Below, in pieces: positions 7,109-20,705 of a stretch of 32,000 nucleotides of DNA (the first letter of the stretch is position 1; the number at the start of each line of letters is the position of its first letter). The notes under the pieces are model-generated. The model ran no database searches and was not told the DNA's origin. It worked only from the letters and a program-made list of their open reading frames with translations. A program made the translations under genes and the position numbers. The stretch spans positions 1 to 32,000 of the forward strand of contig JZWU02000002.1 of assembly GCA_000960865.2 (NCBI GenBank). The letters are read 5' to 3'. The DNA is from Vulcanisaeta sp. AZ3 (GTDB lineage: Archaea; Thermoproteota; Thermoprotei; Thermoproteales; Thermocladiaceae).

Positions 7109-7294
7109 TCACGCAGCCTTATACTTCCCATCAGTCTTTACTACCTTCCCATCCTTCACTAACCTCGTCAACTGGGCCTTAACAACATTAAGCCTCTCCT
7201 CACCAACAGCCCTCGCTATCTCCTCAACAGCAAACTCCTTATCCTTATTACCCGTAAGATAATCCAGAATCTTCTTCTTTATACCCTCGACCAT
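7109..7294 (-). CDS. small winged-helix DNA-binding protein (61 aa)
   Basis: [47 protein letters not shown] has the helix-turn-helix plus wing pattern. It has its own TATA box (7317-7324). Confidence 0.5.
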
Positions 7295-7316
7295 ACAATA
7301 TGAAAGTATTTTCTAG

Positions 7317-7324
7317 TTTTTAAA
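7317..7324 (-). promoter_or_regulatory. TATA box for the wHTH gene
   Basis: TTTAAAAA on the minus strand, centred about 27 nt upstream of ATG 7294. Confidence 0.4.
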
Positions 7325-7464
7325 GACACCGCTTACATATTTTGTGAGACGCAATCCATAACTCATTAAACTAATTAATAATATAAATTAACATACTTCT
7401 AATTAAAAACCAGAAATTTACCGCAAAACCACTGCAACCCCCTCTATTAATAACACATAAACCC

Positions 7465-8580
7465 ATGAAAAATACCATAACCTCTACTCATTATTCACAT
7501 GTAAAAAGAGATTTACACAAGAGAGATTGCTTTTATATGCCCAAACTAGCACTCAAAACTGAAGTGCAAGAGTTCAGGGCATATTATGATAATGGAATTG
7601 TAATAGAATACAAAAGCAAGAAAATAATCATCGACTCACTAAAAAGACCAACAAAGCCATACGACGCAATACTAATAACCCACGGACACAAAGACCACGT
7701 AAACCCCAAAGCCCTCCACGGAGCCTACCCAATAATCATGAGCGAAGAAACAGCCACCATAATCAGAATCCGCGACAATGAAAGACTCAGGTACATAAAG
7801 GCCAACCCAGGCACTAAACTAACCATTAACGACATCACAATCGAAGCCTTCAACGCCGGACACATAATCGGCAGCCTATCCTACGTCCTCGACTTTAAAG
7901 ACCTTAGGATTGGAATCACTGGGGATTTTAACGTCGAATCCTCAATAATACTAAACGGCAACAAAAGCCTACCCGCAGACATCATAATAATGGAAGCAAC
8001 GTACGGAGACCCCGACTACGTATTCCCAAGCAGAGAAACAATATACAACGAATTAAAAACCATAATCGAGAACAACACAAAAAGCGGTAACGTACTCCTA
8101 ATGGGCCAACCACTAGGTAGAGGACAAGAACTAACCGCCCTGCTTAAGGACTACCCAATCTACATAGAACCCAACATAAAGATACTAAACAACGCACTCG
8201 GCCTCAAGTACGGCAAAGTACTCAGCGACTTACCCGAGACAGGCTCAATAATCATAACGGGCACACAAAAAAACTCCATGAATACAATCAACATACTAAA
8301 AACCAAATACAGCTTAACCAAAACCATTGCACTAAGCGGCATGTACGCAAGAGAATCAAGAACCAACAGACTTAGAGCCCTTGGCATTGAGGCAATCCCA
8401 CTAAGCAGCCACTCCGACTTCCCAGGCCTCGTGGATTTCGTACTCAATAGCGAGGCCAAATTCATCTACACTGTTTACGGAAACGCCGTAAAATTCGCCA
8501 AATACCTCAGGAAAGAGCTCAACATCATGGCAAGACCCCTCCCCACACCAAATCAATTAAGCATTGACTCCTTCCTATAA
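7465..8580 (+). CDS. MBL-fold metallo-hydrolase, beta-CASP-like
   Basis: HxHxDH motif (ILITHGHKDHV), later AGHIIGS and GDF, and a C-terminal SSHSDFPGL that resembles beta-CASP motif C. ATG 7537 (MPKLALK...) is an alternative start. Confidence 0.7.
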   Translation: MKNTITSTHYSHVKRDLHKRDCFYMPKLALKTEVQEFRAYYDNGIVIEYKSKKIIIDSLKRPTKPYDAILITHGHKDHVNPKALHGAYPIIMSEETATIIRIRDNERLRYIKANPGTKLTINDITIEAFNAGHIIGSLSYVLDFKDLRIGITGDFNVESSIILNGNKSLPADIIIMEATYGDPDYVFPSRETIYNELKTIIENNTKSGNVLLMGQPLGRGQELTALLKDYPIYIEPNIKILNNALGLKYGKVLSDLPETGSIIITGTQKNSMNTINILKTKYSLTKTIALSGMYARESRTNRLRALGIEAIPLSSHSDFPGLVDFVLNSEAKFIYTVYGNAVKFAKYLRKELNIMARPLPTPNQLSIDSFL

Positions 8581-8611
8581 ATTTAAAATCACCAATAAGG
8601 AGCAGGACCTA

Positions 8612-9418
8612 ATGAGTAGGGTAATAACACTACTCACAGACTTCGGTTATGAATCATACTTCGTACCATCAATGAAAGGCGTAATACTAAGCCTAAACCC
8701 AAACGCCACAATAATCGACATAACCCACGCAATACCACCCTACAACATAATAAAAGCAGCATTCACCCTATGGGCCTCGTATAAATACTTCCCAAGAGGC
8801 ACAATACACGTAGTAGTCGTAGACCCAGGCGTAGGCACCACAAGAAGAGCCATAACCATAAAAACAAGGAATTACTACTTCATAGGCCCAGACAACGGAG
8901 TCCTCATGATGGCAGCCGAAGACGACGGAATAGAAGAAATAAGAACCATTGAGGAGAAAGCCTTCATGAGGCCCGCAATTTCTAGTACATTCCATGGACG
9001 CGACATATTCGCACCAACAGCCGCATACCTAAGCCTCGGACTAGACCCATCACAACTAGGCCCCAGAATCACCGACCCAATAAGGCTACCCACACAAACA
9101 AACACCATAACCAAAGGACACGCAAAAACCCACATAATCTACATCGATCACTTCGGAAACACATACACAAACATAAAAACCAACGACCTACAAACACTAA
9201 ACCTCAACTACGGAGACACAATAAGCATAAACATCCCCAAGAAAAACATCGAAATCAAGGCCAAGTTCCTGAGAAGCTACGGATACGCAAACGAAGGCGA
9301 AACCCTAACCCTCATAAACAGCGAAGGATTCTTAGAACTATCAATCAATAAAGGCAACTTCGCAGGTAAATACGGCGTAGAGGAAGGCGACGAAGTAGAG
9401 CTCACAGTAATTAAGTAA
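8612..9418 (+). CDS. S-adenosyl-L-methionine hydroxide adenosyltransferase family protein (DUF62, chlorinase/fluorinase-like fold)
   Basis: VITLLTDFGYESYFVPSMKGVILSLNP...IIDITHAIPPYNI...GTIHVVVVDPGVGTTRRAI...DNGVL...FHGRDIFAP is the family signature. I prefer ATG 8612, which is preceded by GGAGCAGG, over track start 8564, which overlaps the MBL gene. Confidence 0.8.
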   Translation: MSRVITLLTDFGYESYFVPSMKGVILSLNPNATIIDITHAIPPYNIIKAAFTLWASYKYFPRGTIHVVVVDPGVGTTRRAITIKTRNYYFIGPDNGVLMMAAEDDGIEEIRTIEEKAFMRPAISSTFHGRDIFAPTAAYLSLGLDPSQLGPRITDPIRLPTQTNTITKGHAKTHIIYIDHFGNTYTNIKTNDLQTLNLNYGDTISINIPKKNIEIKAKFLRSYGYANEGETLTLINSEGFLELSINKGNFAGKYGVEEGDEVELTVIK

Positions 9419-9962
9419 CAACACCATGCGAAACCAACTCAAGCAACTCCCTAAAATTCCTAACCAAAATTGCATCATCAACAAAATACTGCCTAGGCAC
9501 CCTACCATTAACCACATTCACATTCTCCATCATAAGCAAACTCATCTTAACACGAACACCACCAATCGAATAACCACCCAACGAACCATCATTCCTAACA
9601 ACCCTATGACAAGGCACAATAACAGGCAACCTATTAGCACCAGCCAACCTACCCACAGCCCTAGGACTAGTATTCAACAACTTAGCAATCTGCGAATAAG
9701 CAGCAACCCTACCCTTAGGAATCGACAACATAGCCAACTGAATAAGACCAAGAAGCCCAGAACCCAACTCCACATACCTAACCAACTCCTGAGGCCCCAA
9801 CAAACCATCCAAATACCTCATTACCAAATCTATGAACTCATCACGAACATCAATACGCACACCATCAACACCAACCCTCAACCTAACCAACTGAATCCTA
9901 CCATCACTAGCACAAACCTCAAGCACACCAATCCCCCTAACCGGCAAAGCAACACAACGCAT
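9411..9962 (-). CDS. ogt: methylated-DNA--protein-cysteine methyltransferase
   Basis: Active-site motif IVPCHRVV, preceded by YSQIAKLLNTSPRAVGRLAGANRLPV. I prefer ATG 9962 over TTG 9980. The 3' end overlaps the convergent DUF62 gene by 8 nt. Confidence 0.85.
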   Translation of the reverse strand: MRCVALPVRGIGVLEVCASDGRIQLVRLRVGVDGVRIDVRDEFIDLVMRYLDGLLGPQELVRYVELGSGLLGLIQLAMLSIPKGRVAAYSQIAKLLNTSPRAVGRLAGANRLPVIVPCHRVVRNDGSLGGYSIGGVRVKMSLLMMENVNVVNGRVPRQYFVDDAILVRNFRELLELVSHGVVT

Positions 9963-10014
9963 CCACAGTACTTTTAGCAAAAAGCCCTTAAAAACCCTGA
10001 CCCGTTATTTAACT

Positions 10015-10296
10015 GTGATCGTTAAGGTTAAGCTCGTAGGAGTCCTCAAGGCATTAGCACTAGGCAAGGACCAACTAGAATTCAACAACATCAACAACAT
10101 TAGAGACATAATCAACAACTTAAGGACAATAAATGATAAATTATTCAAGAGAGTCCTCGACACCACAAGAGGCGAATTAATGCCAGACATCTACATAGCC
10201 ATCAACGACACAGACATAAGACTACTCAAAGGCCTAGACACACCAGTCAAAGACGGCGATGAGGTTTTAATACTAGCCTACATACACGGCGGATAA
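10015..10296 (+). CDS. MoaD/ThiS-family ubiquitin-fold protein with C-terminal diglycine
   Basis: 93 aa with a GTG start. The pattern KV(K)L...L...G.....E......VRDLI..L.........L...G.L.P.I.I.(V)N...I..L.GL.T.VKDGDEV.I.. ends in ...YIHGG followed by the stop codon. Confidence 0.7.
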   Translation: MIVKVKLVGVLKALALGKDQLEFNNINNIRDIINNLRTINDKLFKRVLDTTRGELMPDIYIAINDTDIRLLKGLDTPVKDGDEVLILAYIHGG

Positions 10297-10818
10297 ATGA
10301 ACAAAACAATCAAACTAACCAGCGACATCGGAGAACTAAAGATTTGGCTAGCAACCACAATACTAAACAAAGCACTAGACGAAGAAACCCTAAACAAAAT
10401 CAAAAACGCAACACAGAACTGCGAGGAAACACTAGTAACCATAGCACCAGCAAACAAAATCCTCAACGCATGGCACATGATATACCCAACATACCTAAGC
10501 CTAAGAGACCACATAAGAGGCACCACTAAATACAAAGACCCAAGCCTAGGCGCACTAGCATACATGGCAGGAACAACACAACTAAGAAAAGCACTAAACA
10601 CACTAAACCCCATAGGGCATAGAGAAATCACCATAATAATAATGGGCACCAAAGACTGCACAACAAACACCATCAAAGACGTACTAAACATCATAAAAGA
10701 AATCACCACAGACATAATACTAGGCGCCGGCGCATACAAAAAATACGAAGGAAACTACAAAACAATCGAAGAATACACAAACAAACTAATCAACGAATAC
10801 ATCAACACATACACATAA
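10297..10818 (+). CDS. hypothetical protein, possible Cgi121 (KEOPS subunit)
   Basis: The ATG immediately follows the TAA of the MoaD-like gene. The segment ANKILNAWHMIYPTYLSLRDHIRGTTKYKDPSLGALAYMAGTTQLRKALNTLNP parallels the Cgi121 core (..H...A...A.....k.ks...E.L...sG..QI..Ai...G). This comes from by-eye similarity only. Confidence 0.4.
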   Translation: MNKTIKLTSDIGELKIWLATTILNKALDEETLNKIKNATQNCEETLVTIAPANKILNAWHMIYPTYLSLRDHIRGTTKYKDPSLGALAYMAGTTQLRKALNTLNPIGHREITIIIMGTKDCTTNTIKDVLNIIKEITTDIILGAGAYKKYEGNYKTIEEYTNKLINEYINTYT

Positions 10819-10822
10819 CAAG

Positions 10823-10912
10823 CGGGCCCGGTGGGATTTGAACCCACGACCTACGGCTCTCTTCAAGGCACTTACCGGAGGCCGCCGCTCCACCAAGCTG
10901 AGCTACGGGCCC
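10823..10912 (-). tRNA. tRNA-Arg (anticodon CCG) with a 16-nt intron at the canonical 37/38 position (intron 10859-10874)
   Basis: The reverse complement folds as a cloverleaf. The acceptor stem is GGGCCCG/CGGGCCC, the D arm is GCTC-AGCTTGGTG-GAGC, and the anticodon stem is GCGGC/GCCGT with loop CT-CCG-G[TAAGTGCCTTGAAGAG]A. The variable region is AGGTC, the T arm is GTGGG-TTCAAAT-CCCAC, and the discriminator is G. CCA is not encoded. Confidence 0.9.
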
Positions 10913-10932
10913 AAACAAAATAAGTCATCCCC

Positions 10933-10939
10933 ATTTAAT
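10933..10939 (-). promoter_or_regulatory. TATA-like box for tRNA-Arg
   Basis: ATTAAAT on the minus strand, about 24 nt upstream of tRNA position 1. Confidence 0.35.
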
Positions 10940-10960
10940 CTATTTTTCTCCCCCACCTAA

Positions 10961-11854
10961 TCACACAAAATGACCCATCGCAATACCAACACCATACAAC
11001 AAACAAAAGAGCGTATAAAACCTACCAGTCCTCGCATCAATATCCGACACACCCAACCTAAAACTCCTAACAAGCCCAGGAACCAACACCACTGTTACTA
11101 AAGCTAACAAGGAGGTCACAGGCAACACACCAACCAAGGAAAGCACCACCGTAATCACAAGCGCCAAGACCAATGAAGAAACATAAATCACAAAACCAAA
11201 CCTACCCGTCAACATGGCAAGCGTTGTAATACCAGCCCTCCTATCATACTCCCTATCCCTATAATTATTAGAATAAATAATAGCCAACATCACAAGCATC
11301 GGCGGTATCGAAACCAGGAAAACACTAGGCACCAAAACACCCAAAGAAGCCACAACAAAAAACCCACCAATCAACAAGGGACCCCACGTCAACGCAACAA
11401 CAACCTCACCCAAAGCCCTATACTTCAAAACAAAAGGAGGCCCAGTATAGGCATAGACAAGAAACACACCAATCAAACCAAACACCAAAACCCACAAACC
11501 AACCACAAAAACCAAATACAAACCCAACAAAACACCACCAACCAACGCCACAAAACCAACAAACACAGCAGTCCTAAGCCCAACAACACCACTCAATATA
11601 GGATGCCTCCTATAAACAGCCGTAGGGGAACCAGGCGTATCAACCCCATGCCTAAAATCAAAATAATCATTAAGAACATTAACACTAACATGAAGCAACA
11701 ACACGCCTATAAGGGCAATCAAGGCATACAAAACACCAACACCACGCAACAAACCAAGAAAATAAGCATAACCAACACCAACCACAAAAACAGCCACCGT
11801 CATAAACAAACTCCAAGCCCTAACCAAACCCAAAAACTCGGAAATCCTCATCAC
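10961..11854 (-). CDS. UbiA-family prenyltransferase, MenA-like
   Basis: Multi-pass membrane protein with NVLNDYFDFRHGVD (NDxxDxxxGxD) and a second Asp-rich motif YSNNYRDREYDRRAGITTLA. Confidence 0.75.
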   Translation of the reverse strand: MMRISEFLGLVRAWSLFMTVAVFVVGVGYAYFLGLLRGVGVLYALIALIGVLLLHVSVNVLNDYFDFRHGVDTPGSPTAVYRRHPILSGVVGLRTAVFVGFVALVGGVLLGLYLVFVVGLWVLVFGLIGVFLVYAYTGPPFVLKYRALGEVVVALTWGPLLIGGFFVVASLGVLVPSVFLVSIPPMLVMLAIIYSNNYRDREYDRRAGITTLAMLTGRFGFVIYVSSLVLALVITVVLSLVGVLPVTSLLALVTVVLVPGLVRSFRLGVSDIDARTGRFYTLFCLLYGVGIAMGHFV

Positions 11855-11911
11855 AAAAACAATTAATCAAACATATTTAAACATAAATCAATGAATTCAG
11901 TTAAAATAAAA

Positions 11912-12604
11912 CTACAACGGAAGCAGCACCATAATAAGCTCAAGCCAAACAACATGAGTTATTATAGACGCCACCAAACCAACCCTATCCGCAAGTAAAC
12001 CATCAACCAAACCCACAACAAAAGCACCAGCCACCAAGGCAGGATTAAAAGTCAACACATGAACCAACGTATAATAAACCATAGAAACAACCCAAGGCTC
12101 CCTACCCAAAACACCCCCAACCAACCCCTGCAACCCACCCCTCCAATAAACCTCCTCCATAAACCCAATAAGAACAAGAACCACAGCCAACACATACCTA
12201 CCAGCCATGCCCCTCACCATAGCATAAACAAGAACCACATAACGCGACAAACCTAAATACGTAAGAAAAGCATAACCACCAATAAAAATAACATACATAA
12301 TAAAAGCAAAAACAACACCAATCAACACAACCAACAACCTACCAAACCTAAACCAACGAAGATAACCAGGAAACCAAACAAGCGTCAACAAACCAAGCAA
12401 CAACGTAGACAACGCCATACCATAAACAAAATACCTACTAAACACATCAAAAGACAAAGGCCAAAGCAACACCGGCAACACAACATACACAACCCTCCTA
12501 ACATCACCAAACATAAACAACCACAAAACCCAAACAAACACCACATAAATAAACCTACCGCAACAAACCAAAACACCAAAAAGAGAAAAACAAACCAAAA
12601 ACAC
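11912..12604 (-). CDS. CPBP-family intramembrane glutamic endopeptidase (CAAX protease-like)
   Basis: Polytopic membrane protein with motif 1 FMEEVYWRG (EExxxR) and downstream YYTLVHV and ITHVVWLE His motifs. The start is either GTG 12604 or ATG 12514. Confidence 0.65.
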   Translation of the reverse strand: MFLVCFSLFGVLVCCGRFIYVVFVWVLWLFMFGDVRRVVYVVLPVLLWPLSFDVFSRYFVYGMALSTLLLGLLTLVWFPGYLRWFRFGRLLVVLIGVVFAFIMYVIFIGGYAFLTYLGLSRYVVLVYAMVRGMAGRYVLAVVLVLIGFMEEVYWRGGLQGLVGGVLGREPWVVSMVYYTLVHVLTFNPALVAGAFVVGLVDGLLADRVGLVASIITHVVWLELIMVLLPL

Positions 12605-12711
12605 TATCGCAACTAATACACCAACTCATGATTCTACGCCAACAAAAAGAGTTCTTAAGAGATAGAAAGAAATCACCAAACCCTCAATAACACTTATTAA
12701 GAAGCTGAAAG

Positions 12712-12720
12712 TAATAAAAA
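12712..12720 (+). promoter_or_regulatory. TATA-like box for the pilin-like gene
   Basis: TAATAAAAA centred about 25 nt upstream of ATG 12741. Confidence 0.3.
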
Positions 12721-12740
12721 CGATGACCAAAATAAATAGA

Positions 12741-13277
12741 ATGAACAAAAGAGGTATCTCAAACGTAGTAGCCACAATAATACTCATCGCAGTAGCAATA
12801 GCACTAGCAGTAGCAGTAGCCGTCTGGGTCTTCGGACTAGCAGGAAGCGCAGCAAAAACAGCAACACTAACAATACAAGCCACCAGCCTCACCAACGTTT
12901 CCTCAGACAAGTCGGCTAATATTACATTCGTTGTTAGTAATCCATCTAGCTCAGGGGTAGGCATTAATGGTTTTACTCTCGGTAGCTTAACATGTACCTT
13001 TAGCCCACCAATCCAGGTCAGCGCAGGTACTCAAGGTGAGACAATAACATTTACACTAACCATTAGTCATAATGGTAATTTTACTGGTATTTCTGCAATC
13101 ATTGTTGGTAATACTCCAATTTACAGTAGTAAAGCGTCATCATCATCATCATCATCATCAACAACAACTCCTACATGTACTGGGATTCAGTCTGCAGCAG
13201 TTGGTGTTCAGTATAGTGGTTATTTAACTACTGCGACTGGCCAGACGTATCCGTTTACTGTGACTGCTAGTTCATAA
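12741..13277 (+). CDS. archaeal type IV pilin-like protein (class III signal peptide)
   Basis: MNKRG|ISNVVATIILIAVAIALAVAVAVWVFG is a classic prepilin-peptidase (PibD-type) signal followed by a hydrophobic helix. The C-terminal domain is Ser/Thr/Gly-rich and includes an S8-T3 linker. ATG 12741 gives the usual short leader; the track start is 12723. Confidence 0.75.
   Translation: MNKRGISNVVATIILIAVAIALAVAVAVWVFGLAGSAAKTATLTIQATSLTNVSSDKSANITFVVSNPSSSGVGINGFTLGSLTCTFSPPIQVSAGTQGETITFTLTISHNGNFTGISAIIVGNTPIYSSKASSSSSSSSTTTPTCTGIQSAAVGVQYSGYLTTATGQTYPFTVTASS
13137..13169 (+). repeat. trinucleotide microsatellite (TCA)8 followed by ACA ACA ACT
   Basis: Read directly from the sequence. It encodes the SSSSSSSSTTT linker of the pilin-like protein. 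Confidence 0.95.
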
Positions 13278-14315
13278 GTGTTTAGTTTTAATTGGTTTTA
13301 AATCAAAATTGTTTTGTTTTCCATGGTTCTTTTTGAACCATGGGGTTTCTACTTCGTCTAGTCTCCATCTTTGTTTTGTAACTGCCTCCGTGGGGTTTAT
13401 GGTTATGCCTTCTTTGTAGGCCAGGAGTCCTGTTAGGGCTATCATTGCTCCGTTGTCTCCTGCGTATTCTGGTGGTACTACGCTTATTTTTGTGTTGAAT
13501 TCATTGGCTATGTATTGCATGATTTCTCTTAGCCTCTTGCTTCTGGCTACTCCTCCTGCTATTAGTAGTTCTTTCTTTCCCGTGAGGGCTAGTCCTCTTT
13601 CTGTTACTTCGGCTAGCATTGCGTAGGTTGTTTCGATTAGGCTTAGGCAGACATTGGGTAGGGGTTCTCCTTTTTTGATTAGTCTTAGGGCTTCTTCTAT
13701 TATTCCTGAGAAGGATACGTCTTGGCCTTTTACTGTGTAGGGTAGTGGTATGTATTTTGTGCCTTTGGTTGCGCATTCTTCTATGTGTGGTACGCCTGGG
13801 TTTGGTAGTCCGACTTGTCTTGCGAATTGGTCTAGGGCGTTTCCTATGGCCATGTCTATTGTTTCTCCGAAGATTGCGTAGGTTCTTCCTGAGTGGGCTA
13901 TGACCATTGTGTGTCCGCCTGAGACGAGGAGTACTAGTGGGTCTTCGAAGCTTGATGCCCATCTGGCTATTTCTACGTGGGCTACCCCGTGGTGTACTGG
14001 TATGAGGGGTTTGTCGAACTTTATGGCGAGGGCTCTTGCTAGGGTTGCTCCTACTCTTAGTGTTGGTCCTAGTCCTGGTCCCATGGAGAAGGCTATTGCG
14101 TCTATGTCGTTAATGGTTAGGTTGGCTTTTCTCAGGGCTTCCCTGAGTACTCTTGGTCCTACTGTGACGTGGTGATCCGCGGCTATTCTTGGGTGTATTC
14201 CTATACCTTGTGGTGGTGTGTATGTGTCGTTAATATTCACGAGTATACCATCCTCATTGGCTATTCCCACGCCGAAGGTGTGTGCTGTGGATTCTATTCC
14301 GAGGATTAGCGTCAT
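13272..14315 (-). CDS. kae1: tRNA N6-adenosine threonylcarbamoyltransferase Kae1 (KEOPS catalytic subunit)
   Basis: ILGIESTAHTFGVGI..., HH..VHVE metal-binding region (PVHHGVAHVEIA), LLVSGGHT, and GGVARSKRLREI...PPEYAGDNGAMIA. It is not fused to Bud32. Confidence 0.9.
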   Translation of the reverse strand: MTLILGIESTAHTFGVGIANEDGILVNINDTYTPPQGIGIHPRIAADHHVTVGPRVLREALRKANLTINDIDAIAFSMGPGLGPTLRVGATLARALAIKFDKPLIPVHHGVAHVEIARWASSFEDPLVLLVSGGHTMVIAHSGRTYAIFGETIDMAIGNALDQFARQVGLPNPGVPHIEECATKGTKYIPLPYTVKGQDVSFSGIIEEALRLIKKGEPLPNVCLSLIETTYAMLAEVTERGLALTGKKELLIAGGVARSKRLREIMQYIANEFNTKISVVPPEYAGDNGAMIALTGLLAYKEGITINPTEAVTKQRWRLDEVETPWFKKNHGKQNNFDLKPIKTKHL

Positions 14316-14683
14316 TAATAAACACCCTCGTAGATTGTCTCTACCGCGTCTTCTAGTTCTTCGTCGTTTAGGCTTCCGTATTTATTAATTACGTAGTCAA
14401 TCGTTGAGTTTATTCTGTCTTTTAGCCAGCCGCAGTCTGGCTCGTAGTCGTTGTTCATGAGTATTATGAGGTTTTCTATTCTTTTTGTTGTGTTGTTACT
14501 CTCCATTTTTTCTATTAGGTCTAGGAATGTGGGGCTTGTTATTACTAAGTCTACCTTATCCCAGTCGAAGGCCTCGAACCCCCCGAGCCTATCTACTAGG
14601 AATGTTAGTCTGGCTAGCCTATCAATGCTCGTCCTGCCAATCCTCTTTAGAATGCTTATTACGATGCATTCTGTTAAGTCCAT
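14315..14683 (-). CDS. hypothetical protein (122 aa), translationally coupled to kae1
   Basis: Its TAA overlaps the kae1 ATG by 1 nt (TAATG). The composition is globular and acidic, and the N-terminal ILKRIGRTSIDRLARLTFLVD is helix-rich. No family recognised. Confidence 0.5.
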   Translation of the reverse strand: MDLTECIVISILKRIGRTSIDRLARLTFLVDRLGGFEAFDWDKVDLVITSPTFLDLIEKMESNNTTKRIENLIILMNNDYEPDCGWLKDRINSTIDYVINKYGSLNDEELEDAVETIYEGVY

Positions 14684-14729
14684 TGTTAAATGGCTTGGTT
14701 TGGCTTAATTAATAACTTTGGGTTTAATG

Positions 14730-14737
14730 TTTAAAAG
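14730..14737 (+). promoter_or_regulatory. TATA box for the isochorismatase-family gene
   Basis: TTTAAAAG centred about 28 nt upstream of ATG 14762. Confidence 0.4.
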
Positions 14738-14761
14738 GGGGATTTGTTGGGGTTTGGTTGT

Positions 14762-15328
14762 ATGGTTAGTCCTGATGTTCTTAGGGATGTTTTGAGGCCT
14801 GGTAATTCTGTTTTGGTTGTTTGGGATGTGCATAAGGCGTTATTCAATGGCATATTCAATAAGGATGAATTCCAAAGAGCCCTAAACACGGCTATAAGTG
14901 CTGCTCGGCGTGCCAACGTGCCGATAATCTTCACGAAGATAACCCCATACCCAAGCGGCTTCGAACCTGTTAATACGAAGATCATGCCGTGGAGAGGCGG
15001 TTTTAGGCCTGAGGATATGGAGCTTATTGTTCAGCCTCAACCTAATGACATTGTTATTAATAAGAATACTTGGTCCTTATTCGTGGGGACTAATGTTGAG
15101 CTTTTACTCCGCAATTCAGGTAGATATACTGTGGTTTTGACGGGCATTGCTACGGAGATTGGTGTTGAGACTACGGCTAGGCATGCCTACGCTCTGGGCT
15201 TCATACCAGTCATCATTAGTGACGCAGTCTCTTCGTACAATAGGGAGGCGCATGAGAGGTCTTTAACCAATATGAGAGCGTTCTTCCCAGTAATAACCGC
15301 TGAGGAATTATCAAAATACTGGTCGTGA
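14762..15328 (+). CDS. isochorismatase-family cysteine hydrolase (nicotinamidase-like)
   Basis: VLVVWDVHK..., PIIFTKI, KNTWSLFVGTNVELLLRNSG..TVVLTGIATEIGVETTARHAYALGF (catalytic Cys replaced or shifted, as in the I-A-T-E-I-G-V context). I prefer ATG 14762 over TTG 14744. Confidence 0.75.
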   Translation: MVSPDVLRDVLRPGNSVLVVWDVHKALFNGIFNKDEFQRALNTAISAARRANVPIIFTKITPYPSGFEPVNTKIMPWRGGFRPEDMELIVQPQPNDIVINKNTWSLFVGTNVELLLRNSGRYTVVLTGIATEIGVETTARHAYALGFIPVIISDAVSSYNREAHERSLTNMRAFFPVITAEELSKYWS

Positions 15329-15448
15329 GTTACTGCAGAGGTTACGCTCTACTTAAAATCATTAATTCCCTTTCCCCACCCTTAAGGGAGTTATATTTGA
15401 AGTGTGTATGTCGAAGGATTTTACAAGCTTATGGTGTTGTGGTTGTGT

Positions 15449-16804
15449 TTATTTGTGTGTTATTTCGCTTAGTAGTTCGTTGAATGTGTTTATTAGGTCT
15501 TGTGCTTGTTCTTTTGTGTGTATCATTGATGGTAGTAGGTGTGGCATGTGTTCTGTCATGTATAGTATGTTTTTTGTTCTCATGAATAAGTGTGCTAGGG
15601 TGTATAGGTTTTCGCTTGTCCTGCCTTCGTAGGCCATCCTAACGTTTGTGGGTCTTTCCTTGGTGAAGTGTATGCCTATCATGCTGCCGATGCCTGTTGC
15701 CCAGCATATTCTGTCGTGGTTTTCGCAGGCTTTGTTGAGTTCGTTTCTGGTCCAGTCCCAGAGTTGGTTGAAGTTTTCGTAGAGGGTTTTGTGTTGGTTT
15801 AGGTAGTTTATTGTTGTGTAGCCTGCTGTGAGTGTTATTGGGTTTCCTGTGAATGTTCCGCCGTGGAAGCTTCTGGATCTTGCGTTTGGTCTTTTTACTT
15901 GGTCTAGTAGTTCCATTATTTCTGTTCTTGATGCTATGGTTCCTGCTCCTGGGTAGCCGCCGCCGATTATCTTGCCTAGGGTTACTATGTCTGCCTTGAT
16001 GTTGAATCTCTCTTGGCCGCCGCCTAGGGCGAGTCTGAAGCCTGTTATTACTTCGTCGAGTATTAGTAGGGCTCCGTACTTGTCTGCTAATTCTCTAACG
16101 TTTTTTAGGTAGTTTTCCTTGGGTTCTATGCATCCTCCGGATCCTAGTACTGGTTCTGTTATTATGGCTGCTACGTCGAAGTTCCTGAGGACTTTTTCTA
16201 GGGATTCTGGGTCGTTGTAGGGGATTACTAGTGTGTATTTTATGTGGTCGGTTGGTAGGCCTAGGCTTTCGGGGCCTTCGAAGGGTGGGTTGACGCCGAC
16301 GTGTAGTCCGTCGTAGCCTCCGTGCCAGCCTCCCTCCATTTTTACGATGTATCTACGCCCGGTGTAGGCTCTGGCGAGTCTTACGGCGTACATGTTGGCT
16401 TCTGTGCCGCTGTTTGAGAATCTAATCATGTCTATGTTGGGTATGACTTTTGTTAGTAGTTCTGCGTATTCGACTTCTATTTCGTTTGGGTATCCGAGGT
16501 GTGTTCCGTTGTATGCTGCTTCGTTGACTGCTTTGATTACGAAGTCGGGTGAATGGCCGAGGATGTGTGTTCCGTGTCCCATCCAGTAGTCTACGTATTC
16601 GTTTCCGTCTAGGTCCCAGACCTTGGTGCCGCTTGCTTTCTTTATGTATATTGGGTATGGTGTGAAGTACCTGATTTGGTAAGTGGTTCCTCCGGGTAGT
16701 ACTTTCTTGGCTCTTTCGAAGAATTCCCTAGACTTACTGGTCTTCTCGATGTATATTTTTGTGTACTTGTTAATTAGTTCTTGAACTCTATCAGTGATGT
16801 TCAT
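15449..16804 (-). CDS. class III (PLP) aminotransferase, glutamate-1-semialdehyde 2,1-aminomutase-like
   Basis: AKKVLPGGTT..., VWDLDGNEYVDYWMGHGTHILGH, SGTEANMYAVRLARAYTGR, LILDEVITGFRLALGG, and TLGKIIGGGYP (PLP lysine). Confidence 0.8.
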   Translation of the reverse strand: MNITDRVQELINKYTKIYIEKTSKSREFFERAKKVLPGGTTYQIRYFTPYPIYIKKASGTKVWDLDGNEYVDYWMGHGTHILGHSPDFVIKAVNEAAYNGTHLGYPNEIEVEYAELLTKVIPNIDMIRFSNSGTEANMYAVRLARAYTGRRYIVKMEGGWHGGYDGLHVGVNPPFEGPESLGLPTDHIKYTLVIPYNDPESLEKVLRNFDVAAIITEPVLGSGGCIEPKENYLKNVRELADKYGALLILDEVITGFRLALGGGQERFNIKADIVTLGKIIGGGYPGAGTIASRTEIMELLDQVKRPNARSRSFHGGTFTGNPITLTAGYTTINYLNQHKTLYENFNQLWDWTRNELNKACENHDRICWATGIGSMIGIHFTKERPTNVRMAYEGRTSENLYTLAHLFMRTKNILYMTEHMPHLLPSMIHTKEQAQDLINTFNELLSEITHK

Positions 16805-16850
16805 CTTCTTCTCTGTGTTGCTTCACTTTATAAATAATGTACCTTTATCG

Positions 16851-17252
16851 TTATGGGAGTTTTACGAGGAATCCGTGGTTTTGCATTAGGTGCAGTAGTG
16901 CGTCTGTGAATCTGCTTGTTTTGTAACCGCATTTTGCGCATATGAAGTACCTGTGCTTGTGGAAGGAGTTTCTGGAGTAGGGTTGGGTGTTGACTCGTAG
17001 CCATTGTGCGTATTCCTTGGTTTTGATTATGTGGTCGTAGAGGCCGCCGTGGTGTTGTACAAAGCCTAGTTTGACTTGGTCTGTGTGTGGTGTTATGGTT
17101 AGTTTGAATTCTTTGTTTGTGAAGGGGCATTTGATGATGCCTTCTAGGAAGGCTTTATTGTCCTTCTTGGCTGTGTATATTACTAGGTCTACGTACTTTC
17201 CCTTGATCTCGTTGCTTTTTCTTAATCCGAGTAGCCCTAGGTCTGTGTTCAT
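16851..17252 (-). CDS. hypothetical protein with a C-terminal C2H2 zinc finger
   Basis: FICAKCGYKTSRFTDALLHLMQNH = C-x2-C-x12-H-x4-H (residues 105-126, nt 16875-16940). The rest is unassigned. Confidence 0.55.
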   Translation of the reverse strand: MNTDLGLLGLRKSNEIKGKYVDLVIYTAKKDNKAFLEGIIKCPFTNKEFKLTITPHTDQVKLGFVQHHGGLYDHIIKTKEYAQWLRVNTQPYSRNSFHKHRYFICAKCGYKTSRFTDALLHLMQNHGFLVKLP

Positions 17253-17297
17253 CGTGTTAGTTCATTGTAGTTGTGCTTTAAGCATTACTTTTCGAGC

Positions 17298-18020
17298 TTA
17301 TAATGTGTTGTGGTTTTTCATGATGTTTAGTAGGTCGTTAACGCAGTTAATTATGTGTGTTCTAACCTTGTTTGCTGTGTTTGATATTGTTTCGTTGAGT
17401 TCGTGGGGGTTCTTTGTTTGGGATATTATGAATAGTGATGAGGGTGATCTAATGTCTGTCTTGGCGATTATGTCTTCACAGACTCTTACTCTAACGATGC
17501 CTGTGGCTTTGCCCTCCGTGTATGTTATTACCTCTACTAAACTATTCTTGATTGGTTCGGTGATTAGATTTAGTGTTATGTTGTTGCCGCTGTATATGAT
17601 GAATATTTCGTCGGCTCCGGTTAGTACTTTGTTTGTCTTGCCGAGTTTGGCGTTGTCGAGTATTCTTCTCCAGCCGTCACCGATTGTCCTGAGGTATGTG
17701 TCGTGTAGGTTTAGTCTGGTGAGTAGGTATTTAATGGGGTCGTTGGTCTCGGTGTTCTTTAGGGTTATGTTGATTTTAAGTTCGTGGGATACGTTGAGTA
17801 GGAATTCGTCTAGTTTATCGAGTAGTGCCCTTAGGTAGTTAATGTTATTGCTTATTATTCTTATGGATTCCTCGTCATTAATCTCTAGGAGTCTTTCTTC
17901 GTAGGTGTTGTCAGGTCCGATGCCGATTAGGAAGAGGTGTTTCTCGTTAATGGATGCCTTGGTATTTATGAGGGTTCTATCCCTAACCTTAATGGTTCCC
18001 ATGGGTACTATGAACTCCAT
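17298..18020 (-). CDS. hypothetical protein (240 aa), no recognisable family
   Basis: Long ORF with a normal charged, globular composition (N/I/T/K-rich as expected for this strand). It is co-oriented with the zinc-finger ORF and the aminotransferase, with 45-nt and 46-nt gaps. Confidence 0.5.
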   Translation of the reverse strand: MEFIVPMGTIKVRDRTLINTKASINEKHLFLIGIGPDNTYEERLLEINDEESIRIISNNINYLRALLDKLDEFLLNVSHELKINITLKNTETNDPIKYLLTRLNLHDTYLRTIGDGWRRILDNAKLGKTNKVLTGADEIFIIYSGNNITLNLITEPIKNSLVEVITYTEGKATGIVRVRVCEDIIAKTDIRSPSSLFIISQTKNPHELNETISNTANKVRTHIINCVNDLLNIMKNHNTL

Positions 18021-18057
18021 AAGTACTACATTCTCTAGGCCTGTATGTCTCTCTTAA

Positions 18058-18066
18058 TTTTTATAA
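18058..18066 (+). promoter_or_regulatory. TATA box for the SDR gene
   Basis: TTTTTATAA centred about 31 nt upstream of ATG 18093. Confidence 0.4.
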
Positions 18067-18092
18067 GGTGGTAATTATTTGGCTTGTTTTGT

Positions 18093-18854
18093 ATGGGTGA
18101 GTTTGAGGGTCGTGTTGTTGTTGTGACTGGTGGTACTAGGGGTATTGGTAGGGCTATTGCGGAGGCGTTTCTTAGGGAGGGGGCTAGGGTTGCTGTAACC
18201 TTTGTGAAGAGTGATGAGAAGGGTAGGGAGTTGGAGAGGGAGGGTATTTTGGCTATTAAGTGTGATGTTTCTAATAGGGATGAGGTTAGGAGGGCTGTGG
18301 AGCTTGTTCGTGAGAAGCTTGGTGATGTTAGTATTCTCGTTAATAATGCGGGTATAATGCCTTTGATGTCTTTTGAGGATTATAATGAGGAGGTGTTTGA
18401 TAGGATGTTTGCTATTAATGTTAAGGGTATAATTTACACAACCCTTGAGTTTTTGCCTCAGTTAAAGAGGACTAGGGGTGTGATTATTAACATAGCCTCG
18501 AATGCGGGTATTGGTACGGCCTTTGAGGGGACTACTTATTACGCGATTACGAAGGCTTCCGTGATTATACTTACTAAGAGGATGGCTTTTGAGTTGGGTA
18601 AGTATGGTATTAGGGTTAATGCTGTGGCTCCGGGTTGGGTGGAGACGGACATGACTACTGGGGGTAGGTCGAAGGAGGAGGTGGAGAGGACGAAGAGTAT
18701 GCTTAGGTCTAGGACTGTGTTAGGTATGACTGGTGTTCCCAGTGACATAGCTAATGTTGTTTTGTTCCTCGCTAGTGATAAGGCTAGGTACATGACTGGG
18801 CAGACTGTGGTGGTTGATGGTGGTAGAATAGATTATCTAACTCATGGGATTTAG
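18093..18854 (+). CDS. short-chain dehydrogenase/reductase (FabG-like SDR)
   Basis: VVVVTGGTRGIGRAIA (TGxxxGxG), NNAG, the catalytic YAITKAS (YxxxK), and PGWVETDM. I prefer ATG 18093 over TTG 18084. Confidence 0.85.
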   Translation: MGEFEGRVVVVTGGTRGIGRAIAEAFLREGARVAVTFVKSDEKGRELEREGILAIKCDVSNRDEVRRAVELVREKLGDVSILVNNAGIMPLMSFEDYNEEVFDRMFAINVKGIIYTTLEFLPQLKRTRGVIINIASNAGIGTAFEGTTYYAITKASVIILTKRMAFELGKYGIRVNAVAPGWVETDMTTGGRSKEEVERTKSMLRSRTVLGMTGVPSDIANVVLFLASDKARYMTGQTVVVDGGRIDYLTHGI

Positions 18855-18863
18855 TGAGGTTAG

Positions 18864-18871
18864 TTTTTAAA
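18864..18871 (+). promoter_or_regulatory. TATA box for the permease gene
   Basis: TTTTTAAA centred about 31 nt upstream of ATG 18898. Confidence 0.4.
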
Positions 18872-18897
18872 CGTCTTGGGATTAATTTATTATTGAA

Positions 18898-20589
18898 ATG
18901 TTGGAATTAACCTTTGGGCAGTATTATGTGTTGGCTGTGCTTATTCTTGCGATTATATTGCTTTTAACGCGAGTTGTTAGGCATGATATTGTGGGTGCCT
19001 TGGTTTTAATACTCCTCGTGTTGGGTGGGGTGTTGAGTCTTGGGAGGGCTTTGGAGTTTTTTGTGTCTTCTACGGTGGTGGTGCTTGGTAGCTTGTTGTT
19101 AATTAGTAGGACCCTTGAGGAGTCGGGGTTTTTGGACAGGCTTGCTGAGGATTTGAGTAGGTTGATTAGGAATGAGTATGTGCTTCTGGTCATTGTTTTA
19201 TTCATGGTGGCGTTGACCTCGGGTTTTATGAGCGATGTGGCTCTTGTTGCCATATTTATGCCATTTATGTATGCATTATCTAGTATACATAAGAGGAGAT
19301 TGTCTAAGTATTTAATGCCTCTTTCGTATGCTGCAATACTTGGCGGTAGGTATACGATTTTTGGGACGAGTACGAATTTAATAGTTAATCAGTTTTGGTA
19401 TGAAAGTTTCCATAGGTATTTATCCGTGTTTCAATTTCTGTGGGTGGGTCTTGCTATACTCTTTGTTGGGTTGCCGGTGCTTCTGTTAATATACGTGTTG
19501 TTACCAAGTAGGGAGAATGTGGTTAAGTCAATAGATGATTTGAAGATTGGTGAGTATGTGATTGAGGCTAAGGTTAATGAGGGTTGTGAGTGGGTTGGTA
19601 GGCGTAGGCGTGATGTTGAGAGGGAGTATGGTGTTAAGATAGTTACTGTATTGCCCAGAAGGTTTCTTAGGTCGGGTGTTATTAATGAGGGATCTACGTT
19701 ATTAATGAGGGTTCCTACGGATAAGTTGCCTGTTATATCTTCAATTAAGGGTTTGTCATTGGCGTCTATGGAGCAGGTTGAGGGTGGGGAGGTTATTGAG
19801 GCTCTTGTGACTAGTAGTTCGTCTCTTGTTAATAATACGATAGCTAATGCTGATGTTCTTAATAGGTATGGTGTTAGGATTGTTGGGATATCCACAGGTG
19901 GTAGGAGAATTTACGGTGCAATAGAACATACGTCACTGAGGCCTGGTGATGCATTGTTGTTACTTGGTGAGGAGGGGGATGTGACTAGGCTTATGAGGGA
20001 CTTTGGGTTGATGCCTTTGAGGACTACGGGGGTTAGGCTTTTTAATGTTAGGAAGGGTGTTGTGTCTATTGCTGTTTTGGTTGGGGCTACTGTGGCGTCA
20101 TTGCTTGGTGTGGATATTTCATTGGCTTTCTTGATTGCTGCTGTGTTGCTTGTGCTTACGGGTGCTATTAATTATAGGAGGGTTTATCAGTATGTTGATT
20201 GGTCTGTGCTTGTGTTCATAGCCTCATTCTTATCCTTAGGTTATGCTATGAGTGTTAGTGGTTTGTCTGATGTGATTTCTCATGTGTTGCCAGCCTCGCC
20301 AGTATTATTATTCCTAATAACGGTTTTGATTGCGAACTTCGTTAATAATGTTTCGGCGGCTGCCATAATGACTCCAATAGCGTTAACGTACCCGAATCCG
20401 CTTGCTGCGGTTACTGTGGTGGCTATGGCATCCTCAACCACCTTCCTAACACCTTTTAGTCATCCAGCAAACCTACTTATTTATAGTCCAGGGGGCTATA
20501 GGGTGAGGGATTATTTAGTTATGGGTGCCCTAATTGTGCTTACGGTATTTATAGTAACTATGGTGTTCACGGGCTCACTGAAGATATGA
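18898..20589 (+). CDS. DASS/SLC13-type (ArsB/NhaD superfamily) anion permease with two central TrkA-C (RCK_C) domains
   Basis: Hydrophobic N- and C-terminal halves flank two soluble repeats (IGEYVIEAKVNEGCEWVGRRRRDVEREYGVKIVTV... and EVIEALVTSSSSLVNNTIANADVLNRYGVRIVGI...GD.LLLLG). Confidence 0.7.
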   Translation: MLELTFGQYYVLAVLILAIILLLTRVVRHDIVGALVLILLVLGGVLSLGRALEFFVSSTVVVLGSLLLISRTLEESGFLDRLAEDLSRLIRNEYVLLVIVLFMVALTSGFMSDVALVAIFMPFMYALSSIHKRRLSKYLMPLSYAAILGGRYTIFGTSTNLIVNQFWYESFHRYLSVFQFLWVGLAILFVGLPVLLLIYVLLPSRENVVKSIDDLKIGEYVIEAKVNEGCEWVGRRRRDVEREYGVKIVTVLPRRFLRSGVINEGSTLLMRVPTDKLPVISSIKGLSLASMEQVEGGEVIEALVTSSSSLVNNTIANADVLNRYGVRIVGISTGGRRIYGAIEHTSLRPGDALLLLGEEGDVTRLMRDFGLMPLRTTGVRLFNVRKGVVSIAVLVGATVASLLGVDISLAFLIAAVLLVLTGAINYRRVYQYVDWSVLVFIASFLSLGYAMSVSGLSDVISHVLPASPVLLFLITVLIANFVNNVSAAAIMTPIALTYPNPLAAVTVVAMASSTTFLTPFSHPANLLIYSPGGYRVRDYLVMGALIVLTVFIVTMVFTGSLKI

Positions 20590-20700: not shown

Positions 20701-20705
20701 TAAAT

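Follow-up and report, generated by a model that had tools for sequence, protein, structure and literature searches.

The DNA analysed here, referred to as the window, is a 32,000-nucleotide stretch of Vulcanisaeta sp. AZ3 taken from a metagenome-assembled genome; together with a JGI metagenome contig, the total span seen in the AZ3 lineage is about 38 kb. An archaeal type IV pilin-like gene on the plus strand (12,741–13,277, with an alternative start at 12,723) was assigned from profile matches and orthologs, with a score of 40.2 bits against TIGR02537 (cut-off 20) and of 21.9 bits against Pfam Pilin_N, which is under the cut-off of 25.2. The product has the class III signal peptide and the hydrophobic N-terminal helix of a pilin-like protein. 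Residues 5–50 are invariant in 10 orthologs of the genus, and the whole protein can be aligned with its orthologs in 10 taxa. The pilin gene is convergent with the gene for Kae1/TsaD on the minus strand (13,272–14,315), and on its other side lies the gene for an Rce1-like CAAX protease, also on the minus strand (11,912–12,604), whose product is extremely rich in Val, Gly, Leu, and Phe and whose ORF can be aligned with relatives only from residue 30. Domain scans identified a two-domain Cdc48-like ATPase (996–3,002) as the sole AAA+ protein, and the non-coding RNA search yielded one tRNA-Thr only. Look-ups with the pilin from the ATG at 12,741, with the V. thermophila pilin (P0003), and with the truncated ORF at 30,007–31,980 returned nothing.

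Comparison of the gene order around the pilin revealed a conserved arrangement consisting of UbiA, the Rce1-like protein, the pilin, Kae1, a 122-aa gene, isochorismatase, an aminotransferase, a 133-aa gene, a 240-aa gene, SDR, CitMHS, and DUF3834. The same order is kept in three relatives, Vulcanisaeta sp. JCM 16161, V. distributa, and JCM 14467. An integrase adjoining UbiA is present only in the relative JCM 16161.

Analysis of codon endings along the pilin gene revealed an abrupt change in base composition. The first-pass annotation had described a nucleotide-sharp flip at about 12,897, and the codon counts that it gave are exact: counted from the ATG at 12,741, the first 52 codons include 49 with A or C in third position (all but ATG, GGT, and TGG), and 26 of the following 52 end in G or T (49/3 versus 26/26, p = 5e-7, Fisher's exact test). 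The maximum-likelihood change point of the G+T fraction lies after base 12,896 (2-lnL interval 12,894–12,913) and is unchanged for analysis regions of 2, 4, and 10 kb, while segmentation of third codon positions places the boundary between 12,896 and 12,899. The sharp position stood, but the flip proved to consist of two switches. The first, located by change-point analyses and codon listing at 12,896–12,917 (pilin codon 53), is the one seen at first pass; here, pyrimidine third positions change from C to T, with the T fraction rising from 0.07 to 0.83. The second, located by change-point analyses at 13,118–13,184, about 220–290 nt to the right, changes purine third positions from A to G, with the G fraction likewise rising from 0.07 to 0.83. 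Both switches are contained in the pilin gene.

The transition zone between the two switches (12,897–13,175) is T-rich as the right arm and G-poor as the left arm. Its third-position GC is 0.23–0.25, compared with 0.37–0.41 in the flanking genes, and its overall GC is 0.32–0.46. In comparison to 30 relatives, T/(T+C) in the zone is 0.73 versus 0.44 (p = 1e-5), and G/(G+A) is 0.23 versus 0.38 (p = 0.16), so that the G depletion alone is not significant. At the right edge of the zone, a microsatellite, (TCA)8(ACA)2 on the plus strand (13,137–13,166), encodes the Ser/Thr linker of the pilin; the second switch persists when this repeat is removed. The transition zone might have been imported recently from an unskewed relative, but no donor with >90% nucleotide identity was found among about 70 fetched loci. 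One locus (L114), tried as a relative with about 92% identity, matches only in the invariant N-terminus and is frameshifted beyond it.

The flip had also been placed at the boundary between a constant and a variable domain of the pilin. The first switch does lie in the first variable loop, just past the invariant N-terminal helix, but the C-terminal part is conserved and orthologous genus-wide, and no variable cassette is present. One explanation on offer had been a junction made by recombination or inversion, or a switch of pilin cassettes, that joined segments evolved in opposite replication orientation; it would fit a sharp switch at the end of the invariant helix. This explanation fell with the comparative data, and we regard it as almost certainly wrong: the pilin is a full-length ortholog in the 10 taxa, gene order across the flip is the same in the three relatives, and these relatives are unskewed. 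Because they are unskewed, no source of oppositely skewed DNA is available, and the symmetric grading of the skew on both sides is unexpected for a simple junction. In addition, blastn and tblastn searches with both halves of the pilin gene against 38 kb, which looked for extra pilin modules, recovered the gene itself only; domain scans of the window genes revealed no recombinase; and long or flanking inverted repeats were not found at the flip. Pilin variation by inversion or cassette recombination is well established, as in shufflons and in Neisseria pilE/pilS. The AZ3 locus resembles these systems only in having its switch within a pilin gene past the conserved N-terminal helix, and differs from them in that no silent cassettes were found alongside it.

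On the two sides of 12.9 kb, the window carries skews of opposite sign, in agreement with the more than 10 kb each way reported at first pass. From base 1 to 12.9 kb, the GC skew is −0.22 to −0.56 and the AT skew is up to +0.61, with the opposite signs rightward, and the cumulative GC skew within the window reaches its minimum at 12.5–13.5 kb. In the left arm (1–12,896), the minus strand is G/T-rich and the plus strand A/C-rich, with a plus-strand G+T fraction at four-fold sites of 0.02–0.05 beside the flip (0.02 in the Rce1-like gene, the last gene of this arm), 0.12–0.17 at 1–7 kb, and 0.34 at 98–949. This arm extends 1.25 kb past the window start, with values of 0.32–0.36. In the right arm (13,176–28,495), the plus strand is G/T-rich, with four-fold G+T of 0.93–0.96 at 13.3–18 kb (0.93 in Kae1, the first gene lying fully in this arm), about 0.75–0.8 at 19–26 kb, and 0.57–0.8 at 26–28.5 kb. 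The DNA at 28,496–32,000 is unskewed baseline (0.45–0.52), which runs on to about 37 kb in the JGI contig (0.38–0.53). On the outward strand, the G+T fraction at third positions is 0.94–0.96 near the centre and decreases to 0.81 (left) and 0.72 (right) at 10–13 kb; further out on the right it is 0.57 at 13–16 kb and 0.42–0.46 beyond, and on the left the four-fold value is down to 0.64–0.68 at 12–14 kb. The bias forms a local, roughly symmetric peak, which on the right has faded to baseline by about 28.5 kb and on the left has clearly weakened by 12–14 kb.

Genes in both orientations are skewed alike (e.g., 0.91 and 0.89 at 1.5–3 kb left of the flip), and intergenic DNA has a skew of the same sign as the genes, which rules out a gene-orientation effect as the cause. 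A candidate parallel, an A-rich stretch adjoining Kae1 in an unrelated archaeon (L003), is merely a run of plus-strand genes. Comparison of the strains revealed an extra 2,317 bp in the JGI strain at site 15,429, consisting of MFS transporter fragments. This JGI-only insert is unskewed (four-fold G+T 0.45–0.60) amid neighbours at 0.72–0.95, showing that the bias depends on location and residence time. The gene order at the right edge of the domain is common to V. thermophila and a metagenome contig (L139), both unskewed; the order is ancestral, which rules out a rearrangement or insertion boundary there. Direct repeats flanking the domain, as for an excisable element, were not found.

The window derives from a metagenome-assembled genome, and a contig misjoin had been named as an alternative from the outset. 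The sequence is matched at 99.5–99.9% identity by the JGI metagenome contig and two Logan contigs, and private SNPs and one indel separate the AZ3 assembly, JGI 3300049624, and Logan SRR18215007. The concordance of three independent assemblies rules out a fold-back or misjoin. Beyond that, the reading frames are unbroken, their products are conserved proteins, and the skewed DNA contains an unskewed insert, so that an artefact of assembly, amplification, or sequencing (a chimeric join or damage-induced base conversion) is scarcely credible. The SNPs among the three strains are about 90% transitions, and their clustering at the locus indicates active homologous recombination.

The skew is present in all three near-identical, independently assembled sequences of the AZ3 lineage, and no comparable skew was found at about 50 related pilin loci. 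The strand bias is restricted to this one Vulcanisaeta lineage. To describe the changes on the AZ3 branch, we used two-outgroup parsimony, counting sites at which two outgroups agree and AZ3 differs; of these counts, those at codon positions 1+2 deserve more trust, because synonymous sites are saturated between species. In the right arm, on the plus strand, C>T changes number 145 at positions 1+2 and 160 at position 3, against 11 and 8 for G>A; A>G changes number 48 and 91, against 38 and 4 for T>C; and G>T changes number 32 and 49. The left arm is the mirror image, with 40 and 63 G>A and 31 and 29 T>C changes. On the strand with its 5' end toward the flip, the ranking is C>T, then A>G, then G>T, which is the mitochondrial type of single-stranded-DNA damage spectrum, present on one strand only and mirrored across the start. 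The cause of the bias is clearly mutational rather than coding. Judged from its base changes, the spectrum would fit lesions at C and A on one strand or at G and T on the other. Local hypermutation in the form of faster protein evolution was rejected: a relative-rate test of Kae1 amino acids against an outgroup indicated no acceleration (10 versus 16 unique changes), and the excess of AZ3-unique changes in three-taxon counts arises because of the phylogeny. The XDH large subunit gene, tried as a rate control outside the domain, is missing in the two outgroups used.

The pattern has the properties of a replication-type skew, namely a sign change in GC and keto skew with a G/T-rich leading strand, at synonymous sites and independently of gene strand. 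An origin-type skew jump was the other explanation in the first-pass annotation, and its polarity and strand-specific mutational cause are borne out by the mirrored, gene-strand-independent spectrum. Its scale is not: the right side is at baseline from about 28.5 to 37 kb and the left side is weakening, so the skew does not have replichore length, and it is confined to one lineage. A canonical archaeal oriC contains an AT-rich unwinding element flanked by ORB or mini-ORB repeats and adjoins orc1/cdc6 or whiP (PMC4010727). The first-pass annotation had seen no orc1/cdc6 and no ORB-like repeats, and this held in our searches. Pfam and NCBIfam scans of the window genes and Pfam calls for 38 kb of the JGI contig revealed no Orc1/Cdc6 or WhiP gene. 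The ORB-like motif TCCANNGGAAA, with one mismatch allowed, has 5 matches versus 8.5 expected, none of them closer than 900 nt to the flip; Thermoproteales may have ORB motifs of another sequence. The repeat search at 11.8–14.4 kb gave low-complexity matches only, and no hairpin or cruciform at the flip exceeded shuffled controls. The AT-rich intergenic stretch closest by (12,600–12,750, GC 0.31) corresponds to the pilin promoter region, and other parts of the window have a lower GC. The central zone lies inside the pilin coding sequence, as had been pointed out for the flip. A canonical chromosomal origin with ordinary replication skew, of the bacterial oriC type or of the archaeal type with Orc1/Cdc6, would explain the polarity, the cumulative-skew minimum, and the mirrored substitution asymmetry, but is unlikely given the return to baseline within 13–16 kb, the lack of an initiator gene and of ORB repeats in these searches, the unskewed syntenic relatives, and the report that skews in archaea are for the most part weak and set by the orientation of genes (PMC12999951).

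We propose instead that strand-asymmetric DNA synthesis starts bidirectionally at the flip, in a fixed zone that is present only in the AZ3 lineage and is origin-like without the canonical parts, a reading to which we give an even chance of being right. Synthesis would begin within a stretch of about 250 bp of the pilin gene (12,897 to about 13,175) and run outward in both directions, and the parental strand with its 5' end toward the zone would repeatedly be single-stranded for up to about 13–16 kb on each side. The exposed strand would be the plus strand on the right and the minus strand on the left, as lagging-strand template or displaced strand. At 85–90°C, cytosine and adenine exposed in this way may deaminate and guanine may oxidise, so that C>T, A>G, and G>T changes would be limited to that strand. 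Accumulating along the long AZ3 branch, such damage would have driven synonymous sites nearly to saturation and altered the composition of the proteins. We propose the central zone as an initiation or bubble zone, where both strands would be exposed and the faster deamination of C would prevail on both; on this proposal, the zone is AT-enriched and the C/T switch is offset from the A/G switch because both strands are exposed and C deaminates faster. The start-zone model needs an extra assumption, because an ordinary origin gives a replichore-long skew and not a fade over about 15 kb; uncoupled or strand-displacement synthesis, aborted forks, or break-induced replication could each supply it. 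Against the model stand the findings that neither Orc1/Cdc6 nor WhiP, nor ORB enrichment, nor meaningful repeats or hairpins were detected, that the zone is inside a coding sequence, and that syntenic relatives lack any indication of an origin at this place. We regard the pilin gene as most probably a bystander, and it is speculation that its transcription could help to open the DNA.

The decay with distance also bears on a recurrent site-specific break or staggered nick in the pilin gene, whose repair would involve break-induced or recombination-dependent replication, or else long strand-displacement synthesis, and would leave the extruded or displaced strands single-stranded over variable tracts. 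A spread of tract lengths would account for the decay over about 13–16 kb, and the predicted polarity is the observed one, since the 5' ends of nascent or displaced strands lie at the break. Neither Orc1 nor ORB would be necessary, and recombination-dependent initiation of replication is reported to be possible in archaea (PMC11005403). We consider such a break rather unlikely, since the scans found no gene for a nuclease, a homing endonuclease, a transposase, or a recombinase in the neighbourhood, the 3' tails from 5'-to-3' resection would show the opposite polarity, which is not seen, selection would be expected against a long-recurring break in a conserved gene, and the pilin is intact.

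Transcription would likewise predict that the strand pointing 5' to 3' away from the flip is enriched in G+T, if long divergent transcripts or R-loops from the flip left the non-template strand exposed to deamination; a unique palindromic TATA-like sequence, TAATATTA, occurs at 12,917, and the pilin gene is probably highly transcribed. The equal skew of genes on either strand for about 15 kb each way argues against this, as do the transcribed 5' part of the pilin gene (12,741–12,896), which is biased opposite to the prediction from its own transcription, and the same gene in 30 relatives, equally transcribed and unbiased, so that we find a transcriptional cause very doubtful. Still less probable is the transfer of single-stranded DNA between cells from a fixed nick (Hfr-like or oriT-like), in which damaged incoming strands recombine along a transfer gradient. 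A strand entering 5' end first would give the observed polarity and distance decay, and the SNP clusters indicate that homologous recombination is active, but two opposed transfer origins about 250 bp apart would be required, and the AZ3-lineage sequence examined contains no relaxase or conjugation genes.

Returning to the start zone of DNA synthesis, its footprint can be compared with several known systems. The sign of the switch and the cumulative-skew minimum at a point are as in bacterial GC and keto skew with its G/T-rich leading strand, and bacterial replication skew shares the mirrored, C>T-dominated asymmetry at synonymous sites independent of gene orientation. The AZ3 case differs in being archaeal and confined to one lineage, with an amplitude near saturation (four-fold G+T of 0.02 and 0.96) over only about 13–16 kb per arm. 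The inferred bidirectional start at a fixed position would be shared with a canonical archaeal oriC, from which the AZ3 site differs in that its central zone is coding sequence in which the defining sequence features were not found. Strand-coordinated mutation clusters arise in yeast and cancer on single-stranded DNA at resected breaks or during break-induced replication. They resemble the AZ3 locus in their C-centred changes, in the strand switch at a point, and in tracts of kilobases to tens of kilobases; they are single somatic events, whereas in AZ3 an evolutionary steady state is seen, tied to one nucleotide position and fixed in a natural population.

Strand-displacement replication is not known for crenarchaeal chromosomes. 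It is the mode of replication behind the vertebrate mitochondrial heavy strand, where C>T and A>G changes scale with single-stranded time (compare PMC8565317 and PMC3269012). The one-strand ranking of C>T, A>G, and G>T, the near-saturated synonymous sites, and the position dependence are alike in AZ3, with the differences that the AZ3 pattern is bidirectional from a central zone, lies in a cellular chromosome, and declines with distance from the start. A more specific form of the start zone, which we advance only tentatively, would be a persistent initiation site in a crenarchaeal pilin gene that is independent of Orc1 and ORB (e.g., R-loop- or recombination-primed) and gives rise to strand-displacement-like synthesis, leaving about 13–16 kb single-stranded on each side, saturating the synonymous sites, and yielding a footprint that maps the zone to about 20 nucleotides.

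In our literature searches, neither this locus nor any local domain of saturated skew in an archaeon was found described. The AZ3 locus has a mutational strand bias at the saturation level of mitochondria over only about 30 kb in one archaeal lineage, which contrasts with surveys reporting weak archaeal skews. If the initiation of DNA synthesis is the cause, the sequence records the positions at which strand exposure starts (12,897 and about 13,150) and how far it reaches, and non-canonical or uncoupled replication in hyperthermophiles would become directly testable. The locus also makes visible the compositional drift of housekeeping proteins (Kae1, UbiA, the Rce1-like protein, and the Cdc48-like ATPase) under one-sided mutation pressure. 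For gene callers it carries a warning, as the bias deletes stop codons and produces long false ORFs on the opposite strand.

The switch in G+T polarity (the flip) lies inside the archaeal type IV pilin-like gene (12741..13277, +; alternative start 12723), where maximum likelihood locates the change point in G+T fraction just after base 12,896 (2-lnL interval 12,894–12,913) and segmentation by third codon position places the boundary between 12,896 and 12,899. The first-pass annotation had counted 49 A- or C-ending codons among the first 52 of pilin and 26 G- or T-ending ones among the 52 that follow; both counts are correct, and the contrast is strong (Fisher p = 5e-7). Just left of the flip, the GC skew reaches -0.56 and the AT skew +0.61, with the signs reversed on the right, and the cumulative GC skew across the window has its minimum at 12.5–13.5 kb. 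The change point agrees with the single sharp flip reported earlier, but it proved to be the first of two offset switches. At pyrimidine third positions, C gives way to T between 12,896 and 12,917 (T fraction rising from 0.07 to 0.83); at purine third positions, A gives way to G only between 13,118 and 13,184 (G fraction likewise rising from 0.07 to 0.83), and this second switch holds once a (TCA)8(ACA)2 repeat is taken out. The central zone between them is T-rich as in the right arm (13176..28495) and G-poor as in the left arm (1..12896), with a third-position GC of 0.23–0.25 versus 0.37–0.41 in the flanking genes. Its T enrichment relative to the relatives is highly significant (p = 1e-5). 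Since the accompanying G depletion falls short of significance (p = 0.16), the reading of this zone as two strand-specific exposure domains overlapping by about 220–290 bp is plausible and not proven; with both strands exposed there, the faster cytosine deamination would prevail on each, leaving the zone AT-enriched. The only copy of the palindromic TATA-like octamer TAATATTA in the 32 kb lies at 12917–12924, 20 nt right of the first switch. It arises from the AZ3-specific codons Asn-Ile-Thr, and its position may be due to chance.

Vulcanisaeta are hyperthermophilic crenarchaea within the Thermoproteales, and the AZ3 genome is metagenome-assembled; one of its proteins matches the pilin encoded at 12723–13277 with 100% identity. 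A 78-kb JGI metagenome contig (sample 3300049624) matches window positions 2716–32000, including the flip, at 99.5–99.9% identity, and two Logan contigs from run SRR18215007 span 19.3–28.5 kb and the window's left end. These independent assemblies agree while each carries its own differences (about 90 SNPs and a few indels in all), and the sequence is therefore not misassembled; a contig misjoin, which would have undone the earlier interpretation, is ruled out. About 90% of the polymorphisms among the three strains are transitions. The JGI strain carries a single 2,317-bp insertion at 15429 (L065 12708–15024), containing two MFS-transporter fragments (237 and 180 aa) and a 63-aa ORF. This insert is unskewed (four-fold G+T 0.45–0.60) amid skewed neighbours (0.72 and 0.95), and thus the bias was acquired by DNA long resident here. 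A dense cluster of 24 SNPs in 320 bp (15112–15431) adjoins the insert, which suggests a recent recombination import. Further SNP clusters at 4168–4456 and 27069–27540, between strains otherwise 99.9% identical, look like homologous-recombination tracts, and the cluster at 26.2–27.8 kb overlaps a patch of reduced skew.

Comparison with relatives excluded a rearrangement at the flip. The order UbiA, Rce1-like protease, pilin, Kae1, 122-aa gene, isochorismatase, aminotransferase, 133-aa gene, 240-aa gene, SDR, CitMHS, DUF3834 and MFS is common to JCM 16161, V. distributa and JCM 14467, and the pilin aligns end to end with its orthologs from ten taxa. In this alignment, residues 5–50 are invariant and the flip coincides with the first variable loop; its placement at a boundary between constant and variable domains holds to that extent, but the C-terminal domain is conserved as well. 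No second copy of either pilin half was found in 38 kb, and neither a recombinase gene among the window genes nor a long inverted repeat in the repeat search. Given these absences and the shared gene order, the proposal of an inversion junction or pilin cassette switch is unsupported, and the feature does not class with pilin switching systems. Between the Rce1-like gene and pilin, relatives hold a zinc alcohol dehydrogenase and a 120-aa gene (L068 8212–9792, the JCM 16161 locus), both missing from the AZ3 lineage, in which the gap from the Rce1-like gene (11912–12604) to pilin is about 140–230 bp. Leftward synteny stops at UbiA and the adjoining tRNA-Thr(GGT) gene (10822–10912, -; 91 nt), which probably contains an intron. 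This site looks like an integration hot spot, because UbiA in JCM 16161 has an integrase beside it, along with an integrated element (ParA, T2SSE-type ATPase; L068 5125–6423).

The strand bias is mutational rather than coding. Plus-strand four-fold G+T is 0.02–0.03 in the Rce1-like gene, the 173-aa ORF (10297–10818) and the first 52 pilin codons, and reaches 0.93 in Kae1 and 0.96 in the class-III aminotransferase. At equal distance from the flip, genes on both strands are biased alike, and intergenic DNA is biased with the same sign. Divergent transcription or R-loops are disfavoured as the source, because the bias is independent of gene orientation and runs, in the transcribed 5' stretch of pilin, opposite to what that gene's own transcription predicts. 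The substitution spectrum was obtained from sites at which AZ3 departs from a state common to two outgroups (codon positions 1+2 / position 3). In the right arm, in the plus-strand sense, C>T numbered 145 / 160 versus 11 / 8 for the reverse-complement G>A, A>G 48 / 91 versus 38 / 4 for T>C, and G>T 32 / 49 versus 9 / 5 for C>A; in the left arm, G>A numbered 40 / 63 versus 5 / 3 for C>T, and T>C 31 / 29 versus 6 / 0 for A>G. On single-stranded DNA, deamination of cytosine and adenine together with guanine oxidation would be expected to give this ranking, and the mitochondrial heavy strand shows it too. On either side, the affected strand is always that with its 5' end toward the flip; where forks diverge from a point, this strand is the lagging-strand template or displaced strand. 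Since the Kae1 protein is not accelerated compared with relatives (10 versus 16 unique changes relative to an outgroup), the sequence comparisons show a biased spectrum acting across a long branch, without proving that the mutation rate was raised.

In the AZ3 lineage, the bias forms a local peak. Third-position G+T of the outward-running strand on the left is 0.94 (0–0.3 kb from the flip), 0.96 (0.3–1.5), 0.90 (1.5–3), 0.87 (3–5), 0.89 (5–7.5), 0.82 (7.5–10) and 0.81 (10–13). Values on the right over the same intervals are 0.54, 0.86, 0.76, 0.86, 0.83, 0.77 and 0.72, followed by 0.57 (13–16), 0.42 (16–19) and 0.46 (19–25), distances with no data on the left. In a Logan contig reaching 1.25 kb past the left end of the window, the outward-strand four-fold value is 0.64–0.68. 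Synteny is not broken at the right edge (about 28.5 kb): V. thermophila and another metagenome contig, both unskewed, share with AZ3 the order archease, small genes, glycosyltransferase, MscS-like gene, CoxM/S, XDH, Tsr3, HhH-GPD, Spt4 and S24e. The flip locus is likewise unskewed in V. distributa, JCM 14467, JCM 16161 and about 50 metagenomic Vulcanisaeta and Thermocladium contigs. Pilin third-position G+T over codons 1–52, 53–145 and 146–178 is 0.49, 0.41 and 0.38 in 30 relatives, and 0.06, 0.52 and 0.85 in AZ3.

The simplest account of the flip is a fixed, bidirectional, lineage-peculiar start zone of DNA synthesis. A zone of roughly 250 bp would open on both strands, outgoing synthesis would leave one parental strand single-stranded for up to 13–16 kb per side, and the exposed strand would be deaminated at 85–90 °C. 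The polarity is origin-like, opposite to that of a terminus, in keeping with the origin-type skew jump first proposed; against that proposal, no canonical origin parts were found and the skew fades within 15 kb. Of the features that define archaeal origins (PMC4010727), neither an orc1/cdc6 nor a whiP gene was found in 38 kb, nor were ORB-like repeats or a clear intergenic unwinding element, and the central zone lies in coding sequence. The feature thus falls outside canonical archaeal origins, and the earlier remarks on missing orc1/cdc6 and ORB-like repeats and on a flip within a CDS were borne out. Because an ordinary origin would not give skew fading within 15 kb, a start zone requires the extra assumption of uncoupled, strand-displacement, abortive or break-induced synthesis. 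A possible alternative is a site-specific break that recurs and is followed by break-induced replication, which would give the same polarity along with decay by tract length. Strand-specific DNA transfer would need two opposed nick sites, as well as conjugation genes, of which none were seen. In its behaviour, the feature resembles a replication-type skew switch with a mitochondrial-type gradient of single-strand damage added to it. Archaeal skews are put down mainly to gene orientation in recent surveys (PMC12999951), and our literature search found no local, saturated, bipolar domain described in archaea.

Proteins have changed under the bias; in the Rce1-like protease, for example, Val, Gly, Leu and Phe predominate. 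The bias also strips stop codons off the opposite strand, and the long ORFs opposite real genes at 9426–9977 (+), 13501–13962 (-), 16828–17130 (-), 17071–17838 (+) and 10278–10739 (-) are therefore almost certainly spurious; all five are of very low complexity, rich in Thr, Asn, Pro, His, Gln or in Val, Phe, Ser, Leu. The glycosyltransferase at 26539–27839 (-) is probably a pseudogene in the AZ3 lineage, since it is split there into 107-aa and 272-aa ORFs and is intact in V. thermophila and contig L139 as a single gene of 418–432 aa. The 173-aa protein (10297–10818, +) weakly matches the NCBIfam model of KEOPS subunit Cgi121 (26 bits versus a cut-off of 40); its gene adjoins a Urm1/ThiS-like gene and lies just 2.5 kb from Kae1 (13272–14315, -), the KEOPS catalytic subunit. 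A two-domain Cdc48-like AAA ATPase (996–3002, -) has an unusual N-terminal hydrophobic, membrane-like extension, and the ORF upstream of it (2942–3646) is highly hydrophobic with no family match. Inside the otherwise G-depleted left arm, a purine-rich GAGGAAGAGGAA-type tandem repeat (5663–5740) differs by 9 nt in length between strains, and JGI annotates a 33-aa ORF there.
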